22,424 bases of DNA, taken from positions 1 through 22,424 of the forward strand of contig JAJRVS010000007.1 in the NCBI GenBank assembly GCA_024277195.1. The letters run 5' to 3'. A program made the translations under genes and the position numbers. Origin of the DNA: Verrucomicrobiota bacterium (lineage in GTDB: Bacteria; Verrucomicrobiota; Verrucomicrobiia; Verrucomicrobiales; DEV007). Positions 3,596-22,424 of the stretch are shown piece by piece; the stretch's first letter is position 1; every line of letters begins with the position of its first letter. The notes under the pieces were generated by a model, which saw only the letters and a program-made list of their open reading frames with translations, was not told the DNA's origin and did not search any database.

Positions 3596-5923
3596 TTACT
3601 TATTCCTCATCTCCCGCGCCTTCTTCAAAAAGTCATCAACCGAAGTGGTTTTACTTTTAGGAGGAGCGACCGTAGGCCGTGGTCGGGAACTAGCTGTTTT
3701 GGTCGATTTCGGCTTACTTTTCGGTTTAGGCGTCGGAATCCTCGCCAACTTCACGCTACTGCTCGCGGTTTTATCCCCCACGACTTTCACCTTCGCCTCA
3801 GCCTCCCTATAATTCGCCAGCTTTAATTTCAAAGTATGATCCCCCACCGGTGCCTGTAGTTTCAACGGAGTTTTACCCAGGGAAAGCCCCCCCGGTCCGG
3901 TCACCTCCGCCCCCGACGGACTGCTCACAATTTCCATCGTCCCCTGCTCAAAGATCCCGCCCACATCCACTTTTCCATCCCGAACGACTTTATGGCTTTC
4001 CTTGGACAACAACCAGCCGTTCAAAGTCATCGTCACCTCATACTCTCCCGTCGGCAACTCGGCCACTCTCGCCGGTGTCACCCCCTTGCGTGTTGCAAAG
4101 GCCCCGTCGTATGACTCCACCTCCGATGACAGTCGAGCCAGCTCGTAAGCCACACCCTCCGGAGAAGAACCAATCATCAGTGTGCCACGACTGCGCTTCA
4201 ATGTGAGATCGACCTCGGAAAGTTCACCGTTCAACATCGAAACTTCCCGGGTCACCGGCTCAAAACCCGGAGCCTGCACCTCCAGCTGGTAGTTCCCTAA
4301 AGCCAGCCCTTCCATTCTCTGCGGACTGGTGCCACTACTCATTTCCACTCCTTCCTTCCCGGATCCCGCCCCGCCGATCAGCTTCATTGCGGCTCCCTCC
4401 GGTACCGTTTTGACATCTATCCGCCCCCGCAAGGCGTCAATCCGACCCAACTCCCTGAGAGCTTTCACGTCGACCGGCTCCAGCTTCAAAATATTCTCGT
4501 AGATGATCTTCTTCTTCAACTCGTCTGTCCCAGCCTCCATCACACTCTCATGCAGTGCCGTCACCTGTGCACTGAGCTGTGCTTTCTGCTTCGCTGACAT
4601 TTCAGATTTCAGCTTCGCCGCAGCCGTCGCTTTATTCCGGTCTTCCTCTTGTTGGGTCACCAGTAAAGCGGCCGCCTTTGCCTTGCCTGCTGCTTCAAGA
4701 TCAGCCGCTTGCTGGGCCTCGAACTTCACCAATGCGGCCTGCTCACGCTTCGGCGCTTCCACTCCGTACCACCAACCGGCAGCGCCACCGCCCACAAGGG
4801 TGATCACCGCAACCAGGGTCATTACTTTTTTTCCTGACCCACTTTTCTTTTTCCGTCGTTTCGCAGATTGTCCCGGCACCTCCCCACCCGACAGTTCCAG
4901 CCACAAGGCCTCCGCACTCTCCGGGCGCATCTCCGGGTCCTTCGCCAAACAGGACGCCACCACCATTTCCCACTCCTTAGGAATTTTCACAACTTCCACT
5001 CCCTCCGTTCTTAACTCTTTGCGCCGCACAGTGATACTCGGCACCTCGACCGTCTCGATCTGGTGCTGGATATTTCCCCGGTAAAACGGCGGTTTGCCCG
5101 TCAGCAATTCGTAAATGGTCGCACCCAATGCATAGATATCATCGGACACACTAGGCGGATAGCCTGAAGCCTGTTGCGGGCTCATATAGGGCAGCGTCCC
5201 GCTCACCTGCACACTACCCGATGTCAATCGGCTCATCGAATCGGTCAAACTGCCAGCAATGCCAAAGTCCAGCATCCGCAAGGTTCCGTCCATATCCGAC
5301 ATCAAATTGGCAGGTTTCAGATCACGATGCACCACCTTGCAGCTGTGCGCATATCCAAGAGCCTCACAGGACTGCTCAATCCAGTCGGTAATTTCCGCCA
5401 CCTCGAAAGTCTTGTTCGGTTTGCCCACACGCAGCTTGCTCAAAGTCTCGCCCTCGACGTATTCCATCACAATGGCCGCAGAGTGATCATCCTCTACCAG
5501 GTCATGGATACGCACGATATTCGAGTGAGTTAAATCCAGGCAGCGTTTGGTTTCTTCACGCAAGTCATCCAGGGCAGCATCATCCCCCTGCACCGCTTCA
5601 GGTAGAAATTTCAATGCTACTTCCCGGTTCAGTCGCTCGTCCCTTCCCAGCCACACCACTCCCATACCGCCACGACCAATTTGACGAATCAGCGAATATC
5701 GACCAAATGTTTTCAACCCCTCCCGCAATCCCTTCAACGTCACCCCGAAATCAAGATCATCTTCACTGACTTCTGCCTGAGCTTTCAACGAAACCGTTGT
5801 GAGATGTTTTGACGGCAAATCCACCTGCGGTTCCTCCGAAGGTTGCGGATGCCCGGAAACATCGCCGCGCAAAGTCGACCCGACACCGAGATCGTCTTCA
5901 CTATGGTTTGACTCGTCGCTCAT
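3596..5923 (-). CDS. Ser/Thr protein kinase with TM helix, coiled-coil region and C-terminal tandem PEGA domains plus a Lys/Pro-rich tail
   Basis: 775 aa. Kinase motifs are 'GRGGMGVVW', 'VALKFLPE', 'HRDLKPANLM', 'DFGIAG' and 'YMSPQQA'. A hydrophobic segment 'VMTLVAVITLVGGGAAGWWYG' follows. The C-terminus has PEGA-like repeats ('GSSPEGVAYEL', 'VSSPSGAEVTG') and a 'PKPKSKPKS' tail. Confidence 0.85.
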   Translation of the reverse strand: MSDESNHSEDDLGVGSTLRGDVSGHPQPSEEPQVDLPSKHLTTVSLKAQAEVSEDDLDFGVTLKGLREGLKTFGRYSLIRQIGRGGMGVVWLGRDERLNREVALKFLPEAVQGDDAALDDLREETKRCLDLTHSNIVRIHDLVEDDHSAAIVMEYVEGETLSKLRVGKPNKTFEVAEITDWIEQSCEALGYAHSCKVVHRDLKPANLMSDMDGTLRMLDFGIAGSLTDSMSRLTSGSVQVSGTLPYMSPQQASGYPPSVSDDIYALGATIYELLTGKPPFYRGNIQHQIETVEVPSITVRRKELRTEGVEVVKIPKEWEMVVASCLAKDPEMRPESAEALWLELSGGEVPGQSAKRRKKKSGSGKKVMTLVAVITLVGGGAAGWWYGVEAPKREQAALVKFEAQQAADLEAAGKAKAAALLVTQQEEDRNKATAAAKLKSEMSAKQKAQLSAQVTALHESVMEAGTDELKKKIIYENILKLEPVDVKALRELGRIDALRGRIDVKTVPEGAAMKLIGGAGSGKEGVEMSSGTSPQRMEGLALGNYQLEVQAPGFEPVTREVSMLNGELSEVDLTLKRSRGTLMIGSSPEGVAYELARLSSEVESYDGAFATRKGVTPARVAELPTGEYEVTMTLNGWLLSKESHKVVRDGKVDVGGIFEQGTMEIVSSPSGAEVTGPGGLSLGKTPLKLQAPVGDHTLKLKLANYREAEAKVKVVGDKTASSSVKLARIPTPKPKSKPKSTKTASSRPRPTVAPPKSKTTSVDDFLKKAREMRNK

Positions 5924-6025: not shown

Positions 6026-7822
6026 TCATTCAACAAGCTTGCCCTCTAACGCTTGAATCAGAAAACCATCCCCAGTCTTCACCACCACCATTGAAGCCTC
6101 CAGCTCCAGAGAACTTTTTAGCCCGATAAGATTCCGATAAATTTTATTTAACGTCTCATCCGTATCCTGAAAATATTTTACCGCGCCCGATCCGCTACTC
6201 TCGCCATCATACCCATGGTTATTATAACACTCCAAATTAGCATTCAAGATTATCTGATTGAGATTGAGCCCCCCAGACATTTCATTCGTGGGTAGATTCC
6301 CCAAAACCCGCCGGATCTCCCACTCAATATGCGGTTTGATATATTGCCTTTGAACCCCTGCCCCGGATCCTCCCGACATCAACGTCCCAGCCCCACCCAA
6401 ATAAAGATCCTCAAGCATGCCACTGAGGATATTCGCCTTACCAGGGTAGTTTTCCTCATTCAAGCGCTGTTGATACCGGGTGTAGAAATCAACTTCATAC
6501 TCAATAACAACTCTATAATGAGGCTTCTCATTACCCCATTCAAATTTCCCAGTTCCATCCGGACTATTCCTCGGGGGGAAAAGAAAGCCCTTGTCATCAG
6601 CAATACCCGAAGCCAGCCAAACCTTTGCCAGATGGCGATAATAATCTGCAACCTTCGACGGTCTCTCTGCGGCCTCAACAATAATTCGAAAGCCAAGAAA
6701 GTCCCGGCGATCCGAGGGAATCAGGTAGCGACGACGCGATGAGCGAACGGTTAGGGTGTCATCATTGAGCCAAGCTCCTCCGCGAAACACACGGTATTGC
6801 CTCCCACCACCATCATCGTATCCACCTTTGCTGAGAACCGCCCGCACATCGTCGTCGTTCATTTCATCTCGATACCAGTCGTCACACCACTCCCACACGT
6901 TGCCGCCCAAATCATAGAAGCCGGAGGGATTCATCTTATAACCTCCCACTCGAGCTGTGCGCACTGCTCCATCGTCGTAATTCCATCCCTTCCCTGGAGT
7001 TCCTTCCCAACATTCGGAGCCAGCATAGTTTCCCGATCCTCTTGGTGCTGGCCACTCATTTCTCCAGGGATACACCCCACTCGATGCCACCGCGGCACCC
7101 CACTCGCTGTCCCTGGGTAAGTGATAACCAAAACCGGGGTTCTGCTGCGTCAGCCAATTGCAAAAGGCCTGCGCTTCGTTCCAGCTCACACACACCACCG
7201 GATGATCCTCGCTCTGCTTGAATCCAGGATTTTCCCACGAAGCTCCCTTTTCCAATTTCCATTTCTTCAAATTGGAACCACCACTCTTCACATACTTCAC
7301 CACCTCTGCCCCACCTTGCTGCACATAGCCGCTCGCCTCGGCATAAGCCCGAAAATCCCGCACCCGTGTCTCATGACGGCACATCAATACACCAGCTTTT
7401 CCCGGCACTGGTATGAACTCCATACCCAGCGAATTAATAAAAGGGCCCTCCTTCGTCGCCGCCTCCAAACGCTCGACTGCCAGCTCTTGCTGCGATTTTG
7501 GTAACACCGGTGTTAGTTTCGGCGGCGTTACCTTCGATGACATGGATTTTGGCGGCGTTGGTTTCATCACCACCCGCACCGCTGCATTGCTCCCCGGTTT
7601 CAACATCACTCTATGCACCATCCTCTCATACCCCGCCAGACTCAGCTCCCACTTCATCTCCCCGGGCTGCAATTCTTTCAACCCGTTCAGCGGTGTCACT
7701 CCCAGCACTTTTCCGCTTCCGATTTCCCTCACCTCCGCCCCCACCGGATCGCTCAACACCTCCACCTCAACCGGCTCAAAGACAAAGACCATTTCCTTCT
7801 CAACTCCGGCCGACAATGTCAC
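6026..7822 (-). CDS. PEGA + non-catalytic FGE-sulfatase (SUMF1/C-type-lectin fold) domain protein with a ~230-aa C-terminal extension; GTG start; probably a decayed kinase-fusion paralog
   Basis: 598 aa. The PEGA segment is 'VFVFEPVEVEVLSDPVGAEVREIGSGKVLGVTPL'. The FGE domain runs 'MEFIPVPGKAGVLMCRHETRVRDF...HPVVCVSWNEAQAFCNWL...GGNVWEWC...RGGAWLND...GFRI'. The ORF begins with GTG immediately after an in-frame TAG (see pseudogene 7823-8067). Confidence 0.7.
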   Translation of the reverse strand: MTLSAGVEKEMVFVFEPVEVEVLSDPVGAEVREIGSGKVLGVTPLNGLKELQPGEMKWELSLAGYERMVHRVMLKPGSNAAVRVVMKPTPPKSMSSKVTPPKLTPVLPKSQQELAVERLEAATKEGPFINSLGMEFIPVPGKAGVLMCRHETRVRDFRAYAEASGYVQQGGAEVVKYVKSGGSNLKKWKLEKGASWENPGFKQSEDHPVVCVSWNEAQAFCNWLTQQNPGFGYHLPRDSEWGAAVASSGVYPWRNEWPAPRGSGNYAGSECWEGTPGKGWNYDDGAVRTARVGGYKMNPSGFYDLGGNVWEWCDDWYRDEMNDDDVRAVLSKGGYDDGGGRQYRVFRGGAWLNDDTLTVRSSRRRYLIPSDRRDFLGFRIIVEAAERPSKVADYYRHLAKVWLASGIADDKGFLFPPRNSPDGTGKFEWGNEKPHYRVVIEYEVDFYTRYQQRLNEENYPGKANILSGMLEDLYLGGAGTLMSGGSGAGVQRQYIKPHIEWEIRRVLGNLPTNEMSGGLNLNQIILNANLECYNNHGYDGESSGSGAVKYFQDTDETLNKIYRNLIGLKSSLELEASMVVVKTGDGFLIQALEGKLVE

Positions 7823-11712: not shown

Positions 11713-14529
11713 TCATTTTTTCAGACCTCCACAATGCAGCATCTTCCTTCCCAAATATGGATTAAACGGCTTCTCACTGCTGGTCTGCAACCAATCCCCG
11801 CCCCCACCCTTCACCAGCGGGCAATGCAGCACGTAATAACCTTCACGTCCCTGCGCAATCCCAATCACCTGTTTGCTCAGCATTTCAAATTCCTTGCGAA
11901 ACTCTTTGAGCGTTTTTGCAGTGGTTAGAGAGTCGAATTCACTACTCAATAAACGACGACCCTTACCTTCAAGTAATAATGCCGCGTGGCGTTTTGCACT
12001 TGCCAAGTCATCCTTGCTCAAAGCCGTCGCCATATTTATATAAGCTCGCAACATTTGATCGACCTCTGGGACCCCGTCCCTATTGACATATCCAGAGTCA
12101 TTAACGACGACACGGAAACCAAAATTGTCATCCCTCCGCGTTGCAATATTGCTCATCCTTGTCGATAAAAAATAATTATACTCTTCAGCATGCGCCCAGG
12201 ATCCACCACGCATTACGTACCCCTCAGGTTCCATGTGAACACATCCCTGTTTTTTGCAATATTCAAGCGCATAACTACCTTGCATCTCCTTACGAAACCA
12301 GTCTTCACACCACTCCGACACGTTGCCGCCCAGATCATAAAAACCGAAACGATTCACTCTATAACTACCCACCGAAGCTGTCCGTGGATGCCTATCGGCG
12401 TATCCTCCTTCAATTACAGACCAATTGGCTGAAGTAATATTAACCTCTTTACCTTTAAAGTTGCCCTCATCTCCCCTGCTCGGCGGCCATTCATTCCCCC
12501 ATGGATATTTATCAATAGACCCCACCGCAGCACTCCACTCCCCATCACTCGGCAGACGATAGGTATAACCGGGATTCTGCTGCGTCAGCCACTTGCAAAA
12601 TGCTTGTGCTTCATTCCAGCTCACGCACACCACTGGGTGATCCTCGCCCTGCTCAAATCCCGGCCTCTCCCACGAGGCATCCTTGTCCAGCTCCCAAGGC
12701 GTTAAATATTCTCCTTTTTCATTCTTCTTCACTTTCAACACATACGCCCCGCCGCTCTGCACATAATCCGTCGCCTCCACATACGCCCGGAAATCCCGCA
12801 CCCTTGTCTCCGTCCGGCACATCAACACGCCCGGCTTCCCCGGCACCGGCACAAACTCCATCCCCAGTGAATTCATATAAGGGTTCTCCTTCGTCGCCAC
12901 GCCCAGACGCTCACTCGCCAGTTGCTTAGCGGTCTTCGGCAGTCGCTTCATCACCACTCTCACAGCCGCATTGTTTCCCGCTTTCAGCATCGCTCTGTAC
13001 TCGATCTTCTCATATCCCGCCAGACTCAGTTCCCACTTCATCTCGCCAGGCTGCATTCCTTGTAATCCCGTCAACGGTGTCACTCCCAGCACCTTGCCGT
13101 CCCCGACTTCCCTCACCTCCGCTCCCAGCGGTTCGCTCAATAGCTCCACTTCAACCGGCTCAAAAGTAAAAGTCACCCGCGCATTCTCCTCCCCTCCCTT
13201 CAGTTCCACCTCACGTTGTTGTGACGGCCAACTCTCATACTCCGCCACCACCAAATGATTGCCTGGCAACGCTTTATACCTCAACAAACCATCCCCGCCA
13301 GTCGTCCCGACCTCCACTCCGTCCACTCGAATTTTCGCTCCTCCGGGTTCAGTGCCGATTTCCAGCAGCACCGGCGTATTCATCAAGGCCACCTGCCTCG
13401 CCTCTGCTTTTGCCAACTCATCCGCTGCTCGCTTAGCCTCCAGATCCGCCAACGCCACCGCCGCTCGTTTCGGTGCCTCCACTCCATACCACCACCCAGC
13501 CGCCACTCCTGCCGCCAGAACCATCACTGCAGCCATCGTCACCCACTTCTTTCCAGCAGCACTCTTTTCCACTGCCGGTTTCTGGCATTTTTTCACCAAC
13601 GCTTTTTTCTTTCGCCCCTGCACCGCGCCTCCAGACAACTCCGCCCACAACGCCGCCGCACTCTCCGGGCGCTCTTGCGGGTCTTTCGCTAGGCAGGACG
13701 CCACCGCATCTTCCCACAGCAGCGGAATCTTTCCTGCATCTTCAATATCCAACTGCTTGCGCCGCTCCTCCATGCTCGGCGCTTCCAGAGTCTCGATCTG
13801 ATGCTGCACATTGCCCCGGTAAAACGGTGGCCTACCCGTCAACAATTCATAAATTGTCGCTCCCAGCGCATAGACATCATCCGTCGCCGTCGGCGGGTAT
13901 CCCATCGCCTGCTGAGGACTCATATACACCAGCGTGCCACTGGTCGGCGCCCCGGCTGCGGTCAGACGGCTCATCGAATCGGTCAAACTGCCGGCGATTC
14001 CAAAGTCCAACACCCTTAGTTTTCCCTCACCGTCGATCATCAAGTTGGCAGGCTTCAGATCCCGGTGCACCACCTTACGCCCATGCGCGTATTCCAATCC
14101 CTCGCAAGCCTGCCCAATCCACTCGTTGATTTCCCCTACCTCGAACACTTCCTTGTCTTGTTTCAGACGCCTCGCTGTCAACGTATCCCCAGCGACATAC
14201 TCCATCGAAATCGCCGCTGAAGTCCCATCCTCCACCCAGTCGTAAATCCGCACAATGCTCGGATGCGTCAGATTCAGACATTGCATCGTCTCTTTTTTCA
14301 AATCGTTGATCGCTACCGGATCCCCCTGCACCACCTCCGGCAAGAACTTCAGTGCCACCTTGCGCCCCTCAAGCTTTTCATCCTGCCCCAACCACACCAC
14401 TCCCATGCCCCCACGACCCAGCTGGCGGATCAGCGAATAGCGCCCGAACCCCTTCCGCCCAGGCTGCAAACCTTTCAGCGTCGGACCAAAATCAAGGTCA
14501 TCTTCGTTCTGACTGGGATCAGTATTCAT
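11713..14529 (-). CDS. Ser/Thr kinase - TM - PEGA - non-catalytic FGE-sulfatase domain - C-terminal Cys/His-motif (DUF3347-like) domain fusion protein
   Basis: 938 aa. A full kinase motif set is present ('GRGGMGVVW', 'HRDLKPANLM', 'DFGIAG'). The TM helix is 'WVTMAAVMVLAAGVAAGWWYG'. PEGA is 'GTEPGGAKIRVDG' and 'SEPLGAEVREVGDGKV'. The FGE domain runs 'MEFVPVPGKPGVLMCRTETRVRDF...HPVVCVSWNEAQAFCKWL...RGGSW...FGFRVVV'. The C-terminus is 'YVLHCPLVKGGGGDWLQ...NPYLGRKMLHCGG'. Confidence 0.9.
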   Translation of the reverse strand: MNTDPSQNEDDLDFGPTLKGLQPGRKGFGRYSLIRQLGRGGMGVVWLGQDEKLEGRKVALKFLPEVVQGDPVAINDLKKETMQCLNLTHPSIVRIYDWVEDGTSAAISMEYVAGDTLTARRLKQDKEVFEVGEINEWIGQACEGLEYAHGRKVVHRDLKPANLMIDGEGKLRVLDFGIAGSLTDSMSRLTAAGAPTSGTLVYMSPQQAMGYPPTATDDVYALGATIYELLTGRPPFYRGNVQHQIETLEAPSMEERRKQLDIEDAGKIPLLWEDAVASCLAKDPQERPESAAALWAELSGGAVQGRKKKALVKKCQKPAVEKSAAGKKWVTMAAVMVLAAGVAAGWWYGVEAPKRAAVALADLEAKRAADELAKAEARQVALMNTPVLLEIGTEPGGAKIRVDGVEVGTTGGDGLLRYKALPGNHLVVAEYESWPSQQREVELKGGEENARVTFTFEPVEVELLSEPLGAEVREVGDGKVLGVTPLTGLQGMQPGEMKWELSLAGYEKIEYRAMLKAGNNAAVRVVMKRLPKTAKQLASERLGVATKENPYMNSLGMEFVPVPGKPGVLMCRTETRVRDFRAYVEATDYVQSGGAYVLKVKKNEKGEYLTPWELDKDASWERPGFEQGEDHPVVCVSWNEAQAFCKWLTQQNPGYTYRLPSDGEWSAAVGSIDKYPWGNEWPPSRGDEGNFKGKEVNITSANWSVIEGGYADRHPRTASVGSYRVNRFGFYDLGGNVSEWCEDWFRKEMQGSYALEYCKKQGCVHMEPEGYVMRGGSWAHAEEYNYFLSTRMSNIATRRDDNFGFRVVVNDSGYVNRDGVPEVDQMLRAYINMATALSKDDLASAKRHAALLLEGKGRRLLSSEFDSLTTAKTLKEFRKEFEMLSKQVIGIAQGREGYYVLHCPLVKGGGGDWLQTSSEKPFNPYLGRKMLHCGGLKK

Positions 14530-14684: not shown

Positions 14685-15044
14685 ATGAAATCTTCAGTAA
14701 CAGATATCATGCCGCAGCAACTGCGCCGCTCACTCAGCAAATTTGGCAGCGACCTGTCCATAGCGCGACGCAAACGACGCTTAAGCATCGCGATGATATG
14801 CGAACGGCTTGGCGTCTCCAAGTCCACCTGGCAACGAATGGAAAAAGGCGACCCTACGGTCTCCATGGGTGCCTATATTCAAGCGCTCTTTGTCCTAGGC
14901 TTTGGCACTCCGCTAACTGAATTGATTGACCAACGCAACGATGAGCAAGGTCTATTGCTGGAAATCGAGCATCTGCCAAAACGCATCACCCAGCCACGAC
15001 AAAAAAATCATCATGAAACGAAACATTCAGGTATTTTTAGCTGA
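14685..15044 (+). CDS. hipB: XRE-family HTH transcriptional regulator, HipB-like
   Basis: 119 aa. The segment 'RRKRRLSIAMICERLGVSKSTWQRMEKGD' is an HTH_XRE motif. The gene sits directly upstream of, and overlaps by 32 nt, a HipA-N-domain ORF. Confidence 0.7.
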   Translation: MKSSVTDIMPQQLRRSLSKFGSDLSIARRKRRLSIAMICERLGVSKSTWQRMEKGDPTVSMGAYIQALFVLGFGTPLTELIDQRNDEQGLLLEIEHLPKRITQPRQKNHHETKHSGIFS

Positions 15045-15327
15045 AGAAGACACCCCACTGGGAGAACTGCGCTACGACCATCAAGGGCAGCGGGAGAACG
15101 CAGCTTTTGCCTATTCCCATACCTGGCTCGAAAACGGCGAACGGTTTTCTGTCGACCCCGCCTTGCCATTGGTGAGTGGATTCCAATTCCACGCGCGACG
15201 AAGCCAAGGCACTCTATTTCATGGAGCTATCGCCGACACCGAGCCCGATGGTTGGGGACGAAAAGTAATTCTCCGAAACCACGCGAAACTCAGAAAAACA
15301 GCAAAAGCCCAAGGCGAAAAAAAATAA
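15013..15327 (+). CDS. hipS: HipS-like protein, equivalent to the HipA N-terminal subdomain
   Basis: 105 aa. 'MKRNIQVFLAEEDTPLGELRYDHQG...FSVDPALPL...DTEPDGWGR' matches the HipA N-terminal domain. It ends in TAA inside an A8 run, and the next gene starts at the very next codon in the same frame. Confidence 0.6.
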   Translation: MKRNIQVFLAEEDTPLGELRYDHQGQRENAAFAYSHTWLENGERFSVDPALPLVSGFQFHARRSQGTLFHGAIADTEPDGWGRKVILRNHAKLRKTAKAQGEKK

Positions 15328-16272
15328 GTGGACGTCTTGGGGGAACTCGACTTCCTATTGGCAGTGGATGATGAAAGCCGTATGGGAGCTTTACGTTTTT
15401 GCGACGAAGATGGAGTCTTCCAAGCCACACACGGTGAAGGCGAACGGCGCACTCCCCCGCTGATAGAGCTCCACCAGCTTTTTTGCTCTTCCCGCGCTAT
15501 TGAAACCAATACCGAGACTGCTCAGGATCTCGCTTATTTGCAAGGGCGAGGAACCTCCCTCGGGGGTCTGCGTCCAAAATGTTCGATCCGAGATGAAGAC
15601 GGTTCTCTTGCCATTGGAAAATTCCCAAGTGTGGCAGATGAACGCGCTGTGACCAAAGCAGAAGTTCTCACCCTTACCTTAGCAAAACAGGCAGGCATTC
15701 AAGCCGCCGACGCACGCATCGTGATGAGTGAGCAAATACCGATAGCAGTGATCAAGCGCTTTGATCGAACGCCGACCGGGTTCCGCATCCCCTACCTGTC
15801 CGCCGCCACACTTTTGGGAGCAGAACGCGATGACCCCAACGATCATTCCTACACTGAAATAGTTGATGCCCTACGCATCCACGGATACGACGTTCAAGCC
15901 GATATCGAAGAACTCTATCGCCGCATCGCTTTCTCCATACTGATCAACAATGTCGATGACCATCTACACAATCACGGTTTTTTGCATGTAAGGCATGGCC
16001 AATGGCGGCTAGCACCCGCCTTTGATCTAAACCCCTTTCCCCATCGCGCCCGCGAATTAAAAACCTGGATTTCAGAGGATACAGGACCCGAAAGTTCCCT
16101 TACAGCCTTACAGTCAGTAGCCCCCTATTTCCGTATCAAAAAATCCTTGAGCGATACGATCATAGCTCAAGTAACTTCAGCCGTGCAAAACTGGCGGCAA
16201 GTAGGAGCAAAACTGAAGATGAGCAAAACAGAACTCGATGCCTTCAGCGAAGCTTTCGAGGGAAACGCATAA
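15328..16272 (+). CDS. hipT: HipT-like Ser/Thr kinase toxin, equivalent to the HipA core kinase domain; GTG start
   Basis: 314 aa. It carries 'LGGLRPKCSI' (G-x-Q/R-x-K loop), 'NNVDDHLHNHGF' (the catalytic DDHLKN motif) and 'RLAPAFDLNP' (the HipA C-terminal signature). Confidence 0.7.
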   Translation: MDVLGELDFLLAVDDESRMGALRFCDEDGVFQATHGEGERRTPPLIELHQLFCSSRAIETNTETAQDLAYLQGRGTSLGGLRPKCSIRDEDGSLAIGKFPSVADERAVTKAEVLTLTLAKQAGIQAADARIVMSEQIPIAVIKRFDRTPTGFRIPYLSAATLLGAERDDPNDHSYTEIVDALRIHGYDVQADIEELYRRIAFSILINNVDDHLHNHGFLHVRHGQWRLAPAFDLNPFPHRARELKTWISEDTGPESSLTALQSVAPYFRIKKSLSDTIIAQVTSAVQNWRQVGAKLKMSKTELDAFSEAFEGNA

Positions 16273-16289
16273 GATCTACAATGCCCCCT

Positions 16290-16336
16290 CTTCCCTTCAT
16301 CATTCATCAGTTCCTTGTTCGATATTCAATATTCCC
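16290..16336 (+). repeat. ~48-bp repeat copy between the hipT 3' end and the amidase 3' end
   Basis: 'cttcccttcatcattcatcagttccttgttcgatattcaatattccc'. Confidence 0.8.
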
Positions 16337-17189
16337 GCCCTCCCTTCACCGGAATCGCCAGAAAACGCTCAATCCCTCTCGCCACAGCCGCAACGATGCG
16401 CCGCTGAACAATCGGATCCTGAAGCTCCAATTCTTCCTGACGGTTGACAATCACCCCACATTCGACCAGCACCGCTGGCATATCAGCACTGTGCAATACA
16501 ATCAGATCCGGAAAATCATACACCCCGTATTGTGGCAGTCGAAGATCACGACCCTCCCCCTTTATCTTAGCCGCATGATGCAGGGTCGGATGAAATTTCC
16601 CAGCATCCAGAGCCGCACCAATTTCAGCAGCCAATTGAAAACTTTTCACCATCTGTTTATTCCTGGTTGAGAAAAAAACAGAATAACCGCTAAACTGGTC
16701 CGCATACTCCTGTGTCTTCCCATCCACGACCCATTTTTTCTTAAAATGATCCTGACAGGAATCGTGATGTATCGAGATGAACAGACCCGCCTTCGCCTTT
16801 TTGGCTATTTTGGTTCGCTCGCGGAGCGAGGCCACTTTGCCATCCCCGTTGATCAACACCGTCTCATACCCCAGGCCAAGCAATTTTTCATTCAACTTCC
16901 TACCGATCGCCTGATTGAAGTAAAACTCGCCGACCCCACGTGCACTGCCTGCCCCTTGCACCTTGATTGAGTGCCCTATATCAATCGCCACCTTGATATT
17001 TTTCCCAGCCCCAGACTTTGAATCGTCCGTTGATTTCGATGCAGGTGATGCGGCCTTTTTTATTGAGACTCCGCTACTGTCCCCCGAGACAATCTGAGAA
17101 CACCCGCTTTGAACAGTCCCCATAGCAATCCATACCACTGCTGGCAGAATCTTGCAGAAACCCAACATCGTTCTATGATACGCTCTCAT
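16326..17189 (-). CDS. N-acetylmuramoyl-L-alanine amidase (Amidase_3 family) lipoprotein
   Basis: 287 aa. The signal peptide plus lipobox is 'AMGTVQSGCSQ'. The Amidase_3 core is 'IKVAIDIGHSIKVQGAG...LFISIHHDS'. The last codons overlap a copy of the 48-bp repeat. Confidence 0.8.
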   Translation of the reverse strand: MRAYHRTMLGFCKILPAVVWIAMGTVQSGCSQIVSGDSSGVSIKKAASPASKSTDDSKSGAGKNIKVAIDIGHSIKVQGAGSARGVGEFYFNQAIGRKLNEKLLGLGYETVLINGDGKVASLRERTKIAKKAKAGLFISIHHDSCQDHFKKKWVVDGKTQEYADQFSGYSVFFSTRNKQMVKSFQLAAEIGAALDAGKFHPTLHHAAKIKGEGRDLRLPQYGVYDFPDLIVLHSADMPAVLVECGVIVNRQEELELQDPIVQRRIVAAVARGIERFLAIPVKGGREY

Positions 17190-17297: not shown

Positions 17298-19292
17298 TTA
17301 CTGTTTCACTTCATTTATCTCTACCACTTCAAAACTGGAACCACTTTCCCTAAGTTTATAGATCCCGCGCATTCTACCACTGTGGACGTGAGAACTTCCC
17401 GAGCTCACCCGGTAATCAAACAACGTCTCTGCGGTGAAATATCCTCCTCCGATATCGCGCACACTCGTCGATGATCCGGAAACAAGTGAATAACTACGGT
17501 TCGGGTATTTCTTGATGTAGGCCCGTCGCCCGTTTCTAATCGTACTCTTACCCACACTGCCTTCGTCATAAAAACGCTCTACCGTGGCGGCATAATACGG
17601 CAGCACTTCATCTATCTGGTTGCTCTCGCCCGCCGCAATGAAGTTAGTGATAAATCTACCGACCGCATTTGCCTTGTTCTGTAGTGTCTGTTGCTTCATT
17701 TCCTCCTGACGCATCGTGGCTTCCTTGGCTCGTTGGATCCCAGCCAAACGGTCAACTTCCTTCTGCCTGGCATCGGCCAACTCCTTCCGACGCCGATCCT
17801 CATCCATCTGTTTCTGACGATCGAGTTCAAGCTGCTTTGCGGCCTCATTTGCCCGTTTTAAATCAGCGGCGGCTTTTTCCATGCGCGCCGTTTTATCAGC
17901 CATATCCCGATCCGAAATCCGTCTCACCACCTGTGCCAAATCCTCCTTTGCCCTCACATTATCCGGATCAATTTTCAGTATCTGCTCGTAGACCGCCTTC
18001 TTCTTGTAATCATCAACCGCAGTCATTCCCACCACACTCTCATACAGCGCCTTCACCCTGTCCTCCCGCTCAGTCACTTGGCGGGCTTGCTCCTGTTCCA
18101 GCTCCGCTTGCGCCTTCGCCGCCTGCGCTTTTTTCTGATCTTCCTGCCATTGCGTCTTCGCTGCCGCCAGATCCACCGGCTCCGGCTCCGTTGACTCTGC
18201 TCCCGGCTTCGGAGCCGCCACCCCTAACCACCATCCCGCCACGGCTAAGACCATAACCGCAGCCACCGCCGCAAAGACCTTCTTTTGTTTCCCCCCCTCG
18301 ACAGCCTCGGTTCCCTGGCTTTTCCCCGTCGAGCGCCGCTTCCCGATCCCATCTCCCACTATCTTTTTTTCCCTCACAACCGGAGTGCTACCACCCGATA
18401 GTTCCGCCCACAGTGCCTCCGCGCTCTGCGGCCGATCCTCCGGATCCTTCGCCAGACAAGACGCCACCACTTCTTCCCACAACTGCGGAATTTTCCCCAC
18501 CCCTTCAATCCCCAATTCCTCACGCCGCTGCTCCATGCTCGGCGGCTCCATGGTTTCAATCTGGTGTTGCACATTGCCCCGGTAAAAGGGCGGTTTACTA
18601 GTCAGTAATTCATAGATCGTTGCTCCTAACGAATAAACATCATCCGTCCGGGTCGATGGGTAACCCATCGCCTGTTGTGGACTCATATAGACCAAAGTTC
18701 CACTCGTCATCGCCCCTCCCGAGGTCAGACGGCTCATCGAATCGGTCAGGCTGCCCGCTATGCCGAAGTCCAGTACCCGCAGCATCCCTTCCCCGTCGAT
18801 CATTAAATTCGCCGGCTTCAGATCCCGGTGCACCACCTTGCGCCCGTGCGCATAATCCAAACCCGCACAGGCCTGCTCGATCCAGTCGCCGATCTCTGCT
18901 ACCTCAAACACCTCGCTGCCTTTCGCCAAACGTCGAGCTGTCAGCGTTTCCCCATTGACATACTCCATCGAGATCGCCGCCGCCGCTCCGTCCTCCAGCC
19001 AGTCGTAAATCCGCACTATGTTCGGATGAGTCAACTCCAGACACTGCATCGTCTCCTTTTTTAAATCATTAATCGCCGCCTGATCCCCCTGCACCTGATC
19101 CGGTAGCCGCTTCAGCGCTACCTCGCGCCCGTCGAGCTTTTCATCCTGCCCCAGCCACACCTCCCCCATCCCACCGCGCCCCAACTGACGAATCAGCGAA
19201 TAGCGCCCGAATACCTTCAAACCATCCCGCCAGCCCCTGAGCGTAGGGCCTGAACCAAGGTCATCTTCGTTGCTGTGCTGGTTGGAATTCAT
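17298..19292 (-). CDS. Ser/Thr protein kinase with TM helix, long charged coiled-coil region and a C-terminal domain of unknown function
   Basis: 664 aa. The N-terminus 'MNSNQHSNEDDLGSGPTLRG' and the kinase motifs are shared with the other paralogs ('HRDLKPANLMID', 'DFGIAGSLTDSMSRLT'). The TM helix is 'VFAAVAAVMVLAVAGWWLG'. The C-terminus shows no FGE domain. Confidence 0.9.
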   Translation of the reverse strand: MNSNQHSNEDDLGSGPTLRGWRDGLKVFGRYSLIRQLGRGGMGEVWLGQDEKLDGREVALKRLPDQVQGDQAAINDLKKETMQCLELTHPNIVRIYDWLEDGAAAAISMEYVNGETLTARRLAKGSEVFEVAEIGDWIEQACAGLDYAHGRKVVHRDLKPANLMIDGEGMLRVLDFGIAGSLTDSMSRLTSGGAMTSGTLVYMSPQQAMGYPSTRTDDVYSLGATIYELLTSKPPFYRGNVQHQIETMEPPSMEQRREELGIEGVGKIPQLWEEVVASCLAKDPEDRPQSAEALWAELSGGSTPVVREKKIVGDGIGKRRSTGKSQGTEAVEGGKQKKVFAAVAAVMVLAVAGWWLGVAAPKPGAESTEPEPVDLAAAKTQWQEDQKKAQAAKAQAELEQEQARQVTEREDRVKALYESVVGMTAVDDYKKKAVYEQILKIDPDNVRAKEDLAQVVRRISDRDMADKTARMEKAAADLKRANEAAKQLELDRQKQMDEDRRRKELADARQKEVDRLAGIQRAKEATMRQEEMKQQTLQNKANAVGRFITNFIAAGESNQIDEVLPYYAATVERFYDEGSVGKSTIRNGRRAYIKKYPNRSYSLVSGSSTSVRDIGGGYFTAETLFDYRVSSGSSHVHSGRMRGIYKLRESGSSFEVVEINEVKQ

Positions 19293-19383
19293 ATAGAATA
19301 GGAGAAATCGTTGTTAATCTATCGAAAAACGGTAGCCAAGTAAACTGTCATTTTTTTACTACCAAACAGCCTTCAATCCAACT

Positions 19384-19668
19384 TTAAAAATTCCTTGCTC
19401 GATATTGGATATTCCCACCCCTTGCTCGATATTCGATATTCCCCACCTCCCCCACATGCCACAGCAGGCGAAAGGCATTGCCGGATGAAACCTTAAACTT
19501 CTTTCCCCATTGATCGACCACCACAGGATTGTCGGGCAGCAAACCCCACAAAAATGCGTGCACCGCTTTATGTCCATGTTCCTTACTAGCCATCGACATC
19601 GAGAGTGGAAACGACGCCTGGGATTCCCGCCACTCGCTAGTGTAGCGGAGCGTATCACCGCTATGTCA
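19384..19668 (-). pseudogene. Truncated hipA-like fragment (N-terminal domain only), cut off by the 48-bp repeat
   Basis: Translation gives 'DTLRYTSEWRESQASFPLSMSMASKEHGHKAVHAFLWGLLPDNPVVVDQWGKKFKVSSGNAFRLLWHVGE'. This resembles the HipA region 'F.Y...W......LSLSLPL........F..LLPEG...........DPFALL..IG'. An upstream stop is present, and the 3' end runs into repeat copies at 19391-19444. Confidence 0.4.
19391..19444 (+). repeat. Two adjacent copies of the heptamer-repeat core ('TTGCTCGATATTSGATATTCCC') of the ~48-bp repeat family
   Basis: Direct reading: 'ttccttgctcgatattggatattccc' and 'cttgctcgatattcgatattcccc'. Confidence 0.8.
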
Positions 19669-19778
19669 CTGATTAGCCATAGCCGCACTGAAGATGGACA
19701 TGTTGAACGAAGATTTCGCCGAATTCGCAAGACTTCTTGAAAAAGCCGAAGTGCGAATTATTACACCCCAAGGGGGTA

Positions 19779-19940
19779 GCCCTATGATAGCCCAGGACAT
19801 CGCCCTGGGTCTGGTCAACAGACCACCATTAGCCCTGAATGGGCGGCCCTAAAGCGTTGAGGATTAATGCCACCCATTCAGGGCTGAAAGATTGGAACTC
19901 AAATACCCAAGGTTTCACCCTGGGCTATCATAGAGTCAGC
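19779..19940. other. A ~150-nt nested-palindrome element: either a structured ncRNA or a MITE-like element
   Basis: A perfect 15-bp inverted repeat 'ctatgatagcccagg' (19782-19796) pairs with 'cctgggctatcatag' (19919-19933). It encloses a 6-bp hairpin 'ggtctg/cagacc' (19810-19824) and a perfect 13-bp inverted repeat 'agccctgaatggg' (19831-19843) with 'cccattcagggct' (19873-19885). A small UUCG-like hairpin 'gcccttcgggc' lies just 3'. No ORF explains the region. Confidence 0.35.
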
Positions 19941-20056
19941 CCTTCGGGCCTGTTAGCCTGACGCGTATGCGAGATCGACTCCCGTACTCCACGAACCACC
20001 CCCAACCCACGCAATGCCATTGCGTCCCACATCCCGCCATTCACACGTCACCTCCT

Positions 20057-20146
20057 CTTCACTTCATCATTCTTCGGTTCCTTGAGGTGCGCTAGATTGA
20101 ACGCCGAAGCTTTAGCGAAGGAGGTTGCTCGATATTGGATATTCCC
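20057..20146 (+). repeat. Long variant of the ~48-bp repeat, with a ~42-bp insert containing 'gcgaaggaggttg'
   Basis: 'cttcacttcatcattcttcggttcct...gccgaagctttagcgaaggaggttgctcgatattggatattccc'. The same insert class occurs in the copy at 21283-21356. Confidence 0.8.
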
Positions 20147-20237
20147 TTCGGGTAATTTCCTCCAGCTGTTTGACTCCGTCTATCTCCACTCCGTTACGGT
20201 TCGTCAGCGAACTGACTCGGCTCCCATTCCTATCTTT

Positions 20238-20284
20238 CTTCCCTTCATCATTCTTCGGTTACTTGTTCGATATTCGATATTCCC
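20238..20284 (+). repeat. ~48-bp repeat copy
   Basis: 'cttcccttcatcattcttcggttacttgttcgatattcgatattccc'. It overlaps the 3' end of the truncated four-helix-bundle ORF. Confidence 0.8.
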
Positions 20285-20640
20285 ACCCTCTTCCTCCACG
20301 CGCCCGCCATTCGGCCGACTTCATCGATCAAGCGGTTCACATGCAGGCATTGCCGCCCACTGATCCAGCTTTTGCTTTCCGCCAGTCGCCACAGAATGCG
20401 TAAAAGTTCCAGTATCAGGTTCAGCTCGTCGAGGTGACCTATGCGCTTAGCAGACTGTCTGGAAAAACGCGCCCGGGTGATTTCCTCCAGCGTAGTCAAG
20501 CACAGATTATCAATCTTTTGCCCGAGAGTAAAACGCTGGCCTTTCGGAAAGTCCGCTGTGCGGCCCAGCGACCATTCAGTCAGCTCGACCGCTACCGTGT
20601 GGATCGGCGGACGTGATGTTTTTATACCTTTGATACCTAT
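20248..20640 (-). pseudogene. Four-helix-bundle protein (PF05635 / 23S-IVS / Avd family) lacking a canonical start codon; its C-terminus is fused into the repeat
   Basis: Translation is '...AVELTEWSLGRTADFPKGQRFTLGQKIDNLCLTTLEEITRA...LDELNLILELLRILWRLAE...RLIDEVGRMAGAWRKRV'. It matches the family pattern 'FPK.ERY.L.SQ..RAA.SI..NIAEG ... ELETQL.IA ... EEIGKML'. Upstream there is no ATG/GTG before an in-frame TGA, so the only start is a TTG mid-protein. The last residues 'GISNIEQ' are encoded by the repeat. Confidence 0.45.
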
Positions 20641-20765
20641 TCACTCCCTATGAACGGCCACGCGGATTACCAATCGGCAATCTCACCAGTCAATTGTGGG
20701 GCAATCTTTTCCTCGATGCCTTGGATCACCTGATCACAGAAACAGAAGCTCATGGATGACAAGAA

Positions 20766-20826
20766 ATGAATATCGAATATCGAGCAAGGAGTGTTGAATG
20801 ATGAAGGAAATAGAATGAAGAAAGAG
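20766..20826 (-). repeat. Inverted copy of the ~48-bp repeat
   Basis: The plus strand reads 'gaatatcgaatatcgagcaaggagtgttgaatgatgaagg'. Its reverse complement is 'ccttcatcattcaacactccttgctcgatattcgatattc'. Confidence 0.7.
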
Positions 20827-20862: not shown

Positions 20863-21231
20863 TTATTGCTTTTTTAGGTTTTTCTGGGCGGTTGTGATAC
20901 TTACCACAAAAATGGAGATCAGTTCATTGTTTTCCTCGATGATCGAAGATAGTTTATCTGGAGCATCTACTAAAGGTTTGCGCTGGATAATGAGAAGCCA
21001 GACTAGTGTTTCTCTCAATTCTTTAAGAGCAATTTTCATTTTATGAATGAAGTCTTTCCGGGATTCGGCACTCTGCGCTTCCCCATAGTTCGGCGCAGGT
21101 GATGTACAAGATCGCACAAGTTGCCCCGCCACATGATTCCCCGCTCGCGAATCAGGCAATATCTCAACGACATTCAAAATCCTAACCGCAAATTCAATCA
21201 GCCGTTCCTGCAAGTCATAATCACGTTTCAT
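20863..21231 (-). CDS. Four-helix-bundle protein (PF05635/TIGR02436; the family that includes DGR Avd and 23S rRNA IVS proteins)
   Basis: 122 aa. The sequence 'LIEFAVRILNVVEILPDSRAGNHVAGQLVRSCTSPAPNYGEAQSAESRKDFIHKMKIALKELRETLVWLLI' fits the 'FPK..RY.L.SQL.RSA.SI.SNIAEG..R.S.KEFI.FL.IA.GSL.E' pattern. Confidence 0.75.
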   Translation of the reverse strand: MKRDYDLQERLIEFAVRILNVVEILPDSRAGNHVAGQLVRSCTSPAPNYGEAQSAESRKDFIHKMKIALKELRETLVWLLIIQRKPLVDAPDKLSSIIEENNELISIFVVSITTAQKNLKKQ

Positions 21232-21282
21232 CTTTACTACTCCCCCTCCAATTTTTCTTCATTCTTATATTTCTTCACTTCA

Positions 21283-21460
21283 TCATTCTTCGGTTCCTCT
21301 TGACCGCAGAAGCCTTGGCGAAGGAGGTTGTTCGATATTGGATATTCGATATTCCCTTCTTCTTCACTTCATCATTCTACTGTTCCTTGTTCGATATTCG
21401 ATATTCCCATCTTCTTCACTTCATCATTCTACTGTTCCTTGTTCGATATTCGATATTCCC
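21283..21460 (+). repeat. Tandem array of three ~48-53-bp repeat units: one long variant and two near-identical 53-bp units
   Basis: The units are at 21283-21356 (with the 'gcagaagccttggcgaaggaggttg' insert), 21362-21408 and 21414-21460. Both short units read 'cttcacttcatcattctactgttccttgttcgatattcgatattccc' with a 53-bp period. There are no unique spacers. The array ends 5 bp from the stop of the FGE-domain gene. Confidence 0.85.
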
Positions 21461-21464
21461 TACC

Positions 21465-22424
21465 CTAGCCGCCAACGCCAACCACCACCAAACGGAAGCC
21501 GTAGTAATCGTTTGGCTCCGCCGGAGTAGCGCCGTCGCGGTACGAGGAACGGAGAGCGATCTCCCTACCGCCGAACCAGGAACCACCACGCAACACGCGG
21601 TAACTAGTTCCTCCTTTATCATCAAACCCTAGCTTCTTCAAATCAGCCACCACATCACTGTCATTCAGCTCATCTCGATACCAATCCTCGCACCACTCCC
21701 ACACATTGCCGCCCAAATCATAAAACCCAAATCGATTCATCTTATATCCTCCCACTCGCGCTGTTCTCTCCGCTCCATCTTCGTAGTCATACGCAACACT
21801 CCATTCACTTTTGAAACTATTCATTACCTCCTTACCAAAATAATTGCCCGCCCCTTTCGGCGCCGGCCATTCATTTCCCCATGGATACTTGCCCAGCGAC
21901 CCCACTGCCGCACTCCACTCCCCATCACTCGGCAGACGATAGCTATATCCGGGATTCTGCTGCGTCATCCACTTACAAAAGGCCTGCGCTTCATCCCAAC
22001 TCACGCACACCACTGGATGATCCTCACTCTGCTCAAATCCTGGTTTCTCCCACGATGCTTCTTTATCCAATTCCCACCCCAGTGAATACTTCCCCTCATC
22101 GTTCTTTTTATCTTCCAACACATACGCCCCGCCACTCTGCACATAATCTGTAGCCTGCGCATACGCCCGAAAATCCCGCACCCGTGTCTCCGTCCGGCAC
22201 ATCAACACCCCCGGCTTCCCCGGCACTGGCACGAACTCCATCCCCAACGAATTCACATAGGGACTCTCCTTGCTCGCTGCTGCCAAGCTCTCCGCCTTCA
22301 GTTTCTTTTCCAATAGACCACCACCCGAGGTCACCCCCAGCGCCTCTCCATCAATCACAATTTTTGCCCCTCCAGGTTCACTGCCAATCTTCAAACTCGT
22401 CATCAGCGCCGACTCTGCCGCTGC
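21465..22424 (-). CDS. PEGA + non-catalytic FGE-sulfatase domain protein, 3' part; the ORF continues past the window edge and is probably another kinase-fusion paralog
   Basis: The FGE domain runs 'MEFVPVPGKPGVLMCRTETRVRDF...HPVVCVSWDEAQAFCKWM...GGNVWEWCEDWYRDE...RGGSWFGG...YYGFRLVVV' followed by a stop. The frame stays open upstream of the internal Met through 22424 ('AAAESALMTSLKIGSEPGGAKIVIDG'). This is collinear with the TM-proximal part of the 938-aa paralog. Confidence 0.85.
   Translation of the reverse strand, partial: AAAESALMTSLKIGSEPGGAKIVIDGEALGVTSGGGLLEKKLKAESLAAASKESPYVNSLGMEFVPVPGKPGVLMCRTETRVRDFRAYAQATDYVQSGGAYVLEDKKNDEGKYSLGWELDKEASWEKPGFEQSEDHPVVCVSWDEAQAFCKWMTQQNPGYSYRLPSDGEWSAAVGSLGKYPWGNEWPAPKGAGNYFGKEVMNSFKSEWSVAYDYEDGAERTARVGGYKMNRFGFYDLGGNVWEWCEDWYRDELNDSDVVADLKKLGFDDKGGTSYRVLRGGSWFGGREIALRSSYRDGATPAEPNDYYGFRLVVVGVGG

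Follow-up and report, generated by a model that had tools for sequence, protein, structure and literature searches.

The described systems closest to the element reported here are the 'REPtrons' (Nunvar 2010; Bertels & Rainey 2011; Ton-Hoang 2012; as reviewed in PMC3733652 and PMC6006769), in which repetitive extragenic palindromic (REP) sequences, mostly arranged as inverted doublets (REPINs), are dispersed in multiple copies through intergenic DNA and are associated with a low-copy Y1/HUH gene for a REP-associated tyrosine transposase (RAYT), itself flanked by inverted repeats. Similarly, the 'TIRtrons' are described in the available text of Di Nocera et al. 2013 (PMC3733652) as tyrosine-transposase genes lying between long inverted repeats, of which dimers are scattered elsewhere as well, and one TIRtron/TIRYT family is placed there in Koribacter versatilis, which is also a seed host of the Rfam family Acido-Lenti-1 (RF01687). 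Acido-Lenti-1 is filed in Rfam as 'Gene; sRNA' (small RNA), function unknown; the available part of Weinberg et al. 2010 (PMC2864571) gave it no function, mentioned that it sometimes lies near group II introns, and judged it from its covariation to be a likely RNA. The present analysis concerns a palindromic element at positions 19761-19954 of a 22,424-nt stretch of DNA (contig JAJRVS010000007.1, positions 1 to 22,424 of the forward strand; hereafter the window, by which the whole stretch is meant). We consider it likely that this element is a gene-less, non-autonomous doublet of an Acido-Lenti-1-type repeat, comparable to REPINs and to miniature inverted-repeat transposable elements (MITEs), and that its partner is an IS200-like Y1/HUH transposase.

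An earlier inspection of the letters alone (the sequence-only reading) had reported an unexplained nested palindrome at 19779-19940. The palindrome is present, although the element is slightly larger than that range and consists of two inverted half-units of ~95 nt each. Its reported components were all recovered, i.e. perfect 15-bp arms, CTATGATAGCCCAGG (19782-19796) and CCTGGGCTATCATAG (19919-19933), which are inverted and have 122 nt between them; a perfect 13-bp inner stem of AGCCCTGAATGGG (19831-19843) with CCCATTCAGGGCT (19873-19885), around which the helix can be extended to up to 22 nt (86%); a 6-bp hairpin (CCCAGG...CCTGGG) inside 19791-19809; and a UUCG-type hairpin, GCCCTTCGGGC (GCCC-TTC-GGGC), at 19939-19949. 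The pairing of the 15-bp arms can likewise be extended, to 30 nt with 80% complementarity (19767-19796 with 19919-19948), and, allowing up to three mismatches, the 15-mer would be expected 0.4 times in the window by chance. Folding of a 196-nt stretch yielded -97.2 kcal/mol on the plus strand (shuffled mean -62; z = -7.8) and -105.5 kcal/mol on the minus strand (shuffled mean -69; z = -7.4), with none of 200 shuffles folding as stably. That both strands fold equally well was a first hint of a DNA palindrome rather than a directional RNA.

A search of Rfam (cmscan), which the sequence-only reading had proposed as a check, gave no family at gathering threshold anywhere in the window but did provide a useful lead. 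In a permissive scan, the right arm (19906-19951, plus strand) resembled RF01687 at 20.0 bits (E = 0.04) and the left arm (19764-19809, minus strand) at 15.3 bits, against a threshold of 37 bits, so that by score neither arm is a formal member of the family. As each arm separately resembles RF01687, of which it represents a diverged copy, the 'nested palindrome' corresponds to two inverted copies of one unit. The family's architecture is recognisable in both arms, comprising an 8-bp hairpin, a GGCUA-N-UA linker and a 5-bp hairpin with a UUCG-like loop, while canonical copies from Planctomycetota exceed the threshold outright (26 matches, 37.2-50.3 bits). Anchored alignments established the anatomy of the complete half-unit (~95 nt), which reads TAG-NNC, a first hairpin hpA (GCCCTTTCAGGGC), a variable spacer of ~20 nt, a second hairpin hpB (consensus CCCAGGGC-NNN-GCCCTGGG, an 8-bp GC hairpin), the linker CTATCATAG, NNC and a third hairpin hpC (GCCCC-TTCG-GGGGC). 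The hpB-linker-hpC part has the layout of the Rfam family, whose model thus spans about half of the real unit. In the portion available of the published flanked Acido-Lenti-1 alignment (PMC2864571), the upstream hpA and spacer are also found in the seeds from Lentisphaera araneosa and K. versatilis, tandem arrays are shown, and two Rhodopirellula baltica matches are included.

Membership of this extended half-unit family was assessed using a covariance model (R2) that was built solely from units of Y1 loci fetched by protein similarity (described below) and that included no window sequence. Applied to the whole window with filters off, R2 returned exactly two matches, both full-length and corresponding to the two arms, which are therefore both members of the family: the left half-unit at 19761-19856 on the minus strand (59.3 bits, model positions 1-96) and the right half-unit at 19860-19954 on the plus strand (51.4 bits, full model), at approximate E-values of 9.5e-13 and 6.5e-11, respectively. 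The two are arranged in the canonical (-)(+) order with their hpA ends facing the centre. From left to right, the doublet is composed of the outer small hairpin hpC' (ACCCC-AAG-GGGGT, 19765-19777), the minus-strand linker CTATGATAG (19782-19790, the reverse complement of CTATCATAG), the left hpB hairpin CCCAGGACATCGCCCTGGG (19791-19809), hpA' at 19831-19843, a 29-nt centre without coding remnant (19844-19872), the right hpA at 19873-19885, the right hpB hairpin CCCAAGGTTTCACCCTGGG (19906-19924), the plus-strand linker (19925-19933) and the right hpC at 19939-19949, the last of these being aligned by both the RF01687 and R2 models. One position in each hpB stem is not a Watson-Crick pair (G.T on the left; A.C on the right, marked as non-canonical in the R2 alignment). 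A T-to-A change shared by the two hpA copies accounts for the perfect 13-bp stem between the arms; in relatives, the corresponding sequence is the small hairpin GCCCTTTCAGGGC adjoining a Y1 gene. No target-site duplication was visible around the window element or several inspected doublets, with only a chance-level 'TTA' on each side of the window element. At the left end, a 26-codon open reading frame (ORF; MLNEDFAEFARLLEKAEVRIITPQGG; 19700-19779, plus strand) enters the element and reaches its TAG stop just past hpC'; it has no Pfam match and may be what remains of a gene that the element disrupted.

The three hairpins were evaluated for covariation in two alignments, A1 (64 units) and A3 (85 units from protein-fetched loci, independent of A1). 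Paired cells in A1 amounted to 95.6%, compared to 89.1% in shuffles (0 of 500 as high), and all five hpC pairs displayed compensatory changes. The hpB hairpin is without variation in A1 because it formed part of the search pattern, and the linker is likewise invariant there by ascertainment; in the protein-fetched loci, the linker is conserved as a CT-R-N-N-A-T-A-like sequence. In A3, compensatory changes were observed in 17 of 18 pairs, including all eight of hpB, such that all three hairpins covary. Paired cells reached 97.1% against 77.5% in shuffles (again 0 of 500 as high) and dropped to 16-60% when the register was slid; A3 had been fitted to a covariance model, which biases it toward structure, yet the margin is large. 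The covariation supports the hairpins as such, without telling RNA from single-stranded DNA.

Dispersal of the repeat was explored by scanning one genome per species for the half-site pattern CCCANGG-N4-8-CCTGGGCTATCATAG, the resulting counts being lower bounds since an exact match was required. At least 54 loci were found in about 35 genomes, nearly all of Planctomycetota (Pirellulales, Lacipirellula, Thermoguttaceae and Gemmataceae), with one each in Puniceicoccales, Verrucomicrobiota and Hydrogenedentes, and with at least nine in a single metagenome-assembled genome (MAG). Overall, many genomes and metagenomes were found to contain homologous units, at more than 130 loci in total. Half-units are most commonly found as inverted doublets, but also singly and in tandem arrays with a period of 71-84 nt; the order within doublets is (-)(+) in about 30 clusters, placing the hpA modules face to face, and the reverse order is almost never seen. 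Spacers vary among copies and are non-complementary between arms, and a long arm-to-arm palindrome was rejected on this ground; the conserved features are thus the local hairpins and the linker rather than one long stem. According to a crude, indicative tally, 27 copies lie between co-directional genes, eight (about 20%) between divergent genes and six between convergent genes. The window-specific subtype (hpA = CCCATTCAGGGCT) had no match in a scan of metagenomes, and a scan of viral contigs with the bare 15-mer gave only 15 single matches, apparently by chance.

Repeat variants are lineage-specific, with the units that flank a Y1 gene matching the doublets scattered through the MAG concerned. 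Thus, the Y1 locus L069 of DATKZY and the doublets L019, L036 and L051 share the variant with TAGTAC and the hpB loop GTT, and in DASVCM the variant with AGCGC and the loop TGC is shared by the Y1 locus L017 and L039. Several copies in two MAGs (DATKZY01 and JBGLNR01; loci L016, L050, L051, L055, L065 and L066) additionally display a conserved outer module, CCAGGATTGGGGGCCATRCTC, at either end of the doublets, ~12-22 nt beyond hpC. In L065, L050 and L036, this module is followed by an outward-facing, near-consensus promoter-like site (TTGACA-N17-TAnAAT), with looser matches in other copies; this lineage may have a longer form of the element, or one that carries promoters or draws them in. Furthermore, a shorter derivative, GGGCTTTCATAGCRTGCCCCGTTGGGGTGCC, is present in tandem (at least three copies) after a canonical unit in a Hydrogenedentes MAG (L049, ~3640-3800).

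A Y1 transposase gene was encountered with the repeat when starting from either partner. Searching from motif to protein (phmmer against all six-frame ORFs), nine Y1 ORFs were identified in 7 of the 54 motif-fetched loci, the flanks of several of which contain recognisable IS200-like N- and C-termini. The ORFs L017:1437-1889 (79 bits) and L069:4023-4493 (90 bits) matched the Pfam family Y1_Tnp, as well as the NCBIfam family transpos_IS200 (61-73 bits, cutoff 55), while REP_Tyr_transpos reached only 17.2 bits (cutoff 80). In L069, L032, L052 and L041, model R1 located a (-) unit ending at the start of the gene and a (+) unit beginning at its stop, so that the Y1 gene sits at the centre of a doublet; its position corresponds to the 29-nt centre of the window doublet. 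For the reverse test, seven Y1 proteins were aligned (A2), and similarity at the protein level (43-56% identity) served as the sole criterion for retrieving 80 metagenome loci. At least one repeat unit was detected by R1 in 76 of these 80 loci. Of the 76 loci whose flank was long enough, 52 have a (-) unit directly adjoining the start codon (median gap ~8 nt); a (+) unit directly adjoins the stop codon in 56 of 75 (median gap ~6 nt), and 39 loci have both. The opposite orientation alone was observed in only four and six loci, respectively. The flanking units include some from low-GC lineages with different, covarying hpB stems, and in some loci (as seen in L069) the conserved TAG before hpA is itself the stop codon of the Y1 gene.

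The associated proteins are 150 aa long and are characterised by the HuH motif DH[IV]H, a WQ motif, a Y-x3-Q-x2-HH motif (YIxxQxxHH, e.g. YIARQREHH) and a conserved tail, FQDEF..L..Y.VE.DERYVWD, the HUH (DH[IV]H) and Y motifs being invariant in A2. Y1 paralogues are 35-69% identical in A2, and those within one locus only 35-45%. In two loci (L041, 5523-7408; L069, 1604-4493), two divergent paralogues lie 1-2.5 kb apart, each enclosed by a repeat variant of its own that scores differently. Among solved structures, IS608 TnpA (E = 1e-14) and ISDra2 TnpA come nearest, both of which are enzymes acting on single-stranded DNA hairpins (PMC6006769); no RAYT structure was matched in this comparison.

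With REPtrons, the family shares the dispersal of intergenic hairpin repeats, mostly as inverted doublets in multiple copies (in the relatives, the window holding a single doublet), a low-copy Y1/HUH gene flanked by inverted repeats (in the relatives only) and lineage-specific repeat variants. It differs in that the 5' GTAG (or CGTC) tag is absent, with TAG-NNC found instead before the feet of hpA and hpC and CTATCATAG after that of hpB, in that the unit is formed by three hairpins and a 9-nt linker rather than the one palindrome of a REP, and in that the associated protein is not a class-2 RAYT and lacks the Y-x3-NP motif. The protein instead resembles subclass 1.2 of the TnpAY1 enzymes, which Quentin et al. 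2018 (PMC6006769) described as proteins of 148 aa with DH[IV]H, WQ and YIKNQKEHH motifs and a specific C-terminal domain, at 1.7 copies per genome with 36% identity, mostly cyanobacterial or from Bacteroidetes, and without REPs ('REP: no'), insertion sequence (IS) properties or typical terminal structures. By motif inspection, the correspondence extends to length, HuH, WQ and Y motifs, C-terminal tail and divergent paralogues; the difference is that a structured repeat, positioned at the gene ends, accompanies the gene in 76 of the 80 loci examined here, and that many hosts belong to Planctomycetota. Class 3 TnpAY1, known from Planctomycetes and Acidobacteria with CnGA-footed structures (PMC6006769), was considered and rejected, as its Y and HuH motifs differ. 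The likeness to TIRtrons and their TIRYT transposases was drawn from the arrangement of their terminal inverted repeats (TIRs) as described in the available text of PMC3733652. The features of IS200/IS605 elements or palindrome-associated transposable elements (PATEs), namely differing left-end and right-end hairpins on the same strand, no TIRs, and near-identical copies, were not found: the ends of those elements are non-inverted and lie on one strand, whereas here they are inverted copies of one unit. In view of the low RF01687 score, the absence of a GTAG tag and the different enzyme class, the window element was placed as a variant of the REPtron/TIRtron kind.

Since the half-units of the relatives bracket a Y1 gene in the same (-)...(+) arrangement, the window copy is best regarded as the non-autonomous form. 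What the enzyme may do to such a doublet can be envisaged from the chemistry of IS608 and ISDra2 TnpA and of the RAYTs. The hairpins would extrude in single-stranded DNA, for instance on the lagging-strand template, where a Y1 enzyme whose gene lies elsewhere in the genome would recognise hairpin and linker, nick the strand and then rejoin it; doublets could thereby be copied or maintained in intergenic DNA, as is the case for REPINs with RAYTs. Catalysis on the repeat sites, mobilisation by the Y1 protein and current mobility would all follow from that analogy. At the level of the family, we lean towards the interpretation that Acido-Lenti-1 is not an RNA gene but part of the DNA recognition repeat of subclass-1.2 Y1/HUH endonucleases, constituting a REPtron-like host-replicator system with three-hairpin half-units and the gene at the doublet centre, which would be distributed over Planctomycetota, Acidobacteriota, Lentisphaerota and other phyla and of which the window would hold one non-autonomous doublet. 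No connection between Acido-Lenti-1 and a transposase was found in the literature searched, nor is one mentioned in the available parts of PMC2864571 and its supplement, and the tie of this orphan Rfam motif to a Y1 subclass regarded as 'repeat-less' appears to be previously undescribed.

Several observations weigh against the interpretation of the window element as a doublet partnered by a Y1 enzyme. Models R1 and R2 detected only one doublet in the window, and no Y1 ORF was found by phmmer among the six-frame ORFs of its 22 kb. Subclass 1.2 has been published as having no REPs and as not behaving like an IS (PMC6006769). The ends of the doublet are inverted, whereas IS608-type excision uses two same-strand ends, and the chemistry of the latter is thus not simply transferable. 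Among the loci, all of which were chosen by the repeat or by the Y1 gene, neither empty-site polymorphism nor any other direct sign of movement was seen, and the window copy may be an inactive or decayed relic, as its non-Watson-Crick hpB positions and sub-threshold Rfam scores would allow. Additionally, the E-values of R2 are rough owing to a short calibration, and the gene-context tally was derived from a home-made gene caller based on GC content at third codon positions (GC3).

The alternatives differ in how much of this evidence they can accommodate. It is quite improbable that the element is a gene for a structured sRNA, trans-acting or a riboregulator, as the Rfam label would have it and as the sequence-only reading had suggested in proposing a riboregulator or ribozyme-like fold. 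Such a role would agree with the resemblance of the arms to RF01687, the threshold of which is passed by relatives, with a fold far more stable than shuffles, and with the strong hairpin covariation from which Weinberg et al. 2010 (PMC2864571, available part) arrived at their verdict of a likely RNA. However, covariation fits single-stranded DNA hairpins equally, and the element is symmetric, both strands of the doublet folding equally well. The relatives lie in both orientations and in every class of intergenic region (co-directional, divergent and convergent), promoter and terminator signals around the element are not above background, and the oriented, abutting placement of the units on both sides of the Y1 gene, seen in most of the 80 protein-fetched loci, resembles the ends of a transposon or REPtron rather than a free-standing sRNA gene. 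A host-level structural element of RNA or DNA, serving as a bidirectional terminator, mRNA 3'-end stabiliser or protein-binding site and linked to the transposase only historically, is unlikely as a full explanation. The intergenic location, GC-rich hairpins that are stable in both directions, and a conservation across phyla far exceeding that of neutral relics would all be expected of it, and such secondary roles have been reported for REPs and for enterobacterial REP/BIME (bacterial interspersed mosaic element) sequences (PMC3733652). Nevertheless, the hairpins are not followed by a U-tract, terminator-like matches occur at the background rate, there is no bias toward gene 3' ends (~20% of copies lying between divergent genes, by crude gene calls), and the bracketing of the Y1 gene would be left unexplained. 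A host-level role is compatible with a transposase-partnered doublet as an added role and not as its replacement.

The sequence-only reading had alternatively proposed a MITE with 15-bp TIRs, and this is retained in part: the element is MITE-like in being multi-copy, dispersed and made of the ends of a transposase unit without the gene. A classical MITE, that is, a deletion derivative of a DDE-transposase IS with short TIRs and a target-site duplication, is nonetheless highly improbable. While the perfect 15-bp inverted repeats, the small size and the multi-copy family would suit it, the homology covers structured half-units of ~95 nt with three hairpins rather than short ends, these half-units also occur singly and in tandem arrays, no flanking direct repeat beyond the chance 'TTA' is present, and all transposases encountered alongside the element are of the Y1/HUH and not the DDE type. 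A chance palindrome or recombination scar without a family can hardly be credited; the single copy in the window and a neighbourhood rich in gene fragments and other repeats might have pointed to one, but homologous units exist in more than 130 loci and both arms were recovered by an independent model. The doublet partnered by a Y1/HUH transposase thus remains the favoured explanation.

The surroundings of the element agree with the sequence-only reading, which had placed it between a truncated hipA fragment and a repeat-rich segment; the repeats to the right belong to a different family. The fragment is encoded at 19384-19599 on the minus strand and corresponds to a truncated HipA N-terminus (Couple_hipA, 34 bits, profile positions 41-90 of 99); an ORF at 19359-19730 on the same strand was considered as hipA and rejected in favour of this overlapping frame. 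A further HipA homologue (14926-16272, plus strand) is split by an in-frame TAA after an A8 run (GCGAAAAAAAATAAGTG) into a 133-aa Couple_hipA ORF and a 314-aa HipA_C ORF, which matches a HipS/HipT-type layout but could also be a pseudogene or a slippery-run artefact. The second repeat family, which is unrelated to the doublet, is composed of CTTCATCATTCTTCGGTTCCTTG followed by TTCGATATT(C/G)GATATTCCC and is present in at least six direct copies as well as inverted copies (16277-16345, 19368-19452, 20044-20144, 20225-20293, 20756-20825 (inverted) and 21260-21469 by repeat search). Inverted copies bracket a gene for a 23S_rRNA_IVP four-helix-bundle protein (20863-21231, minus strand), and others lie directly beside the truncated hipA fragment and a bAvd-like one (20248-20499, minus strand); this repeat may form the ends of a small mobile cassette carrying IVP/Avd-like genes. 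The window also contains paralogous genes with Ser/Thr-kinase, PEGA and FGE-sulfatase (C-type-lectin-fold) domains at 3596-5923, 6026-7822, 11713-14529, 17298-19292 and 21465-22403, all on the minus strand, which share DNA blocks of 63-82% identity. These kinases together with the Avd-like/23S-IVP genes suggested a diversity-generating retroelement, which was rejected as no reverse transcriptase (Pfam, ORFs tested) and no template/variable repeat pair was found. GC skew is negative in 42 of 44 500-nt windows (minimum -0.45; cumulative -11.3), consistent with the location of most long genes on the minus strand, and the GC content of the window (42-61%) is below that of most repeat-carrying Planctomycetota loci (55-70%).

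In itself, the window copy is ordinary, being one copy of a dispersed repeat that should be masked or annotated as such and not treated as a riboswitch or ribozyme candidate. At the level of the family, the interpretation favoured here would provide a concrete, testable function for an Rfam family that has been functionless since 2010, as well as a cognate DNA substrate for a Y1/HUH subclass described as having none. It would thus extend REP/RAYT-type biology, i.e. a domesticated transposase with dispersed hairpin doublets, to another enzyme lineage and to the Planctomycetes-Verrucomicrobia-Chlamydiae (PVC) and Acidobacteria phyla, and the repeats may be of use for in vitro studies of single-stranded DNA cleavage and joining and as markers of genome structure in Planctomycetota.

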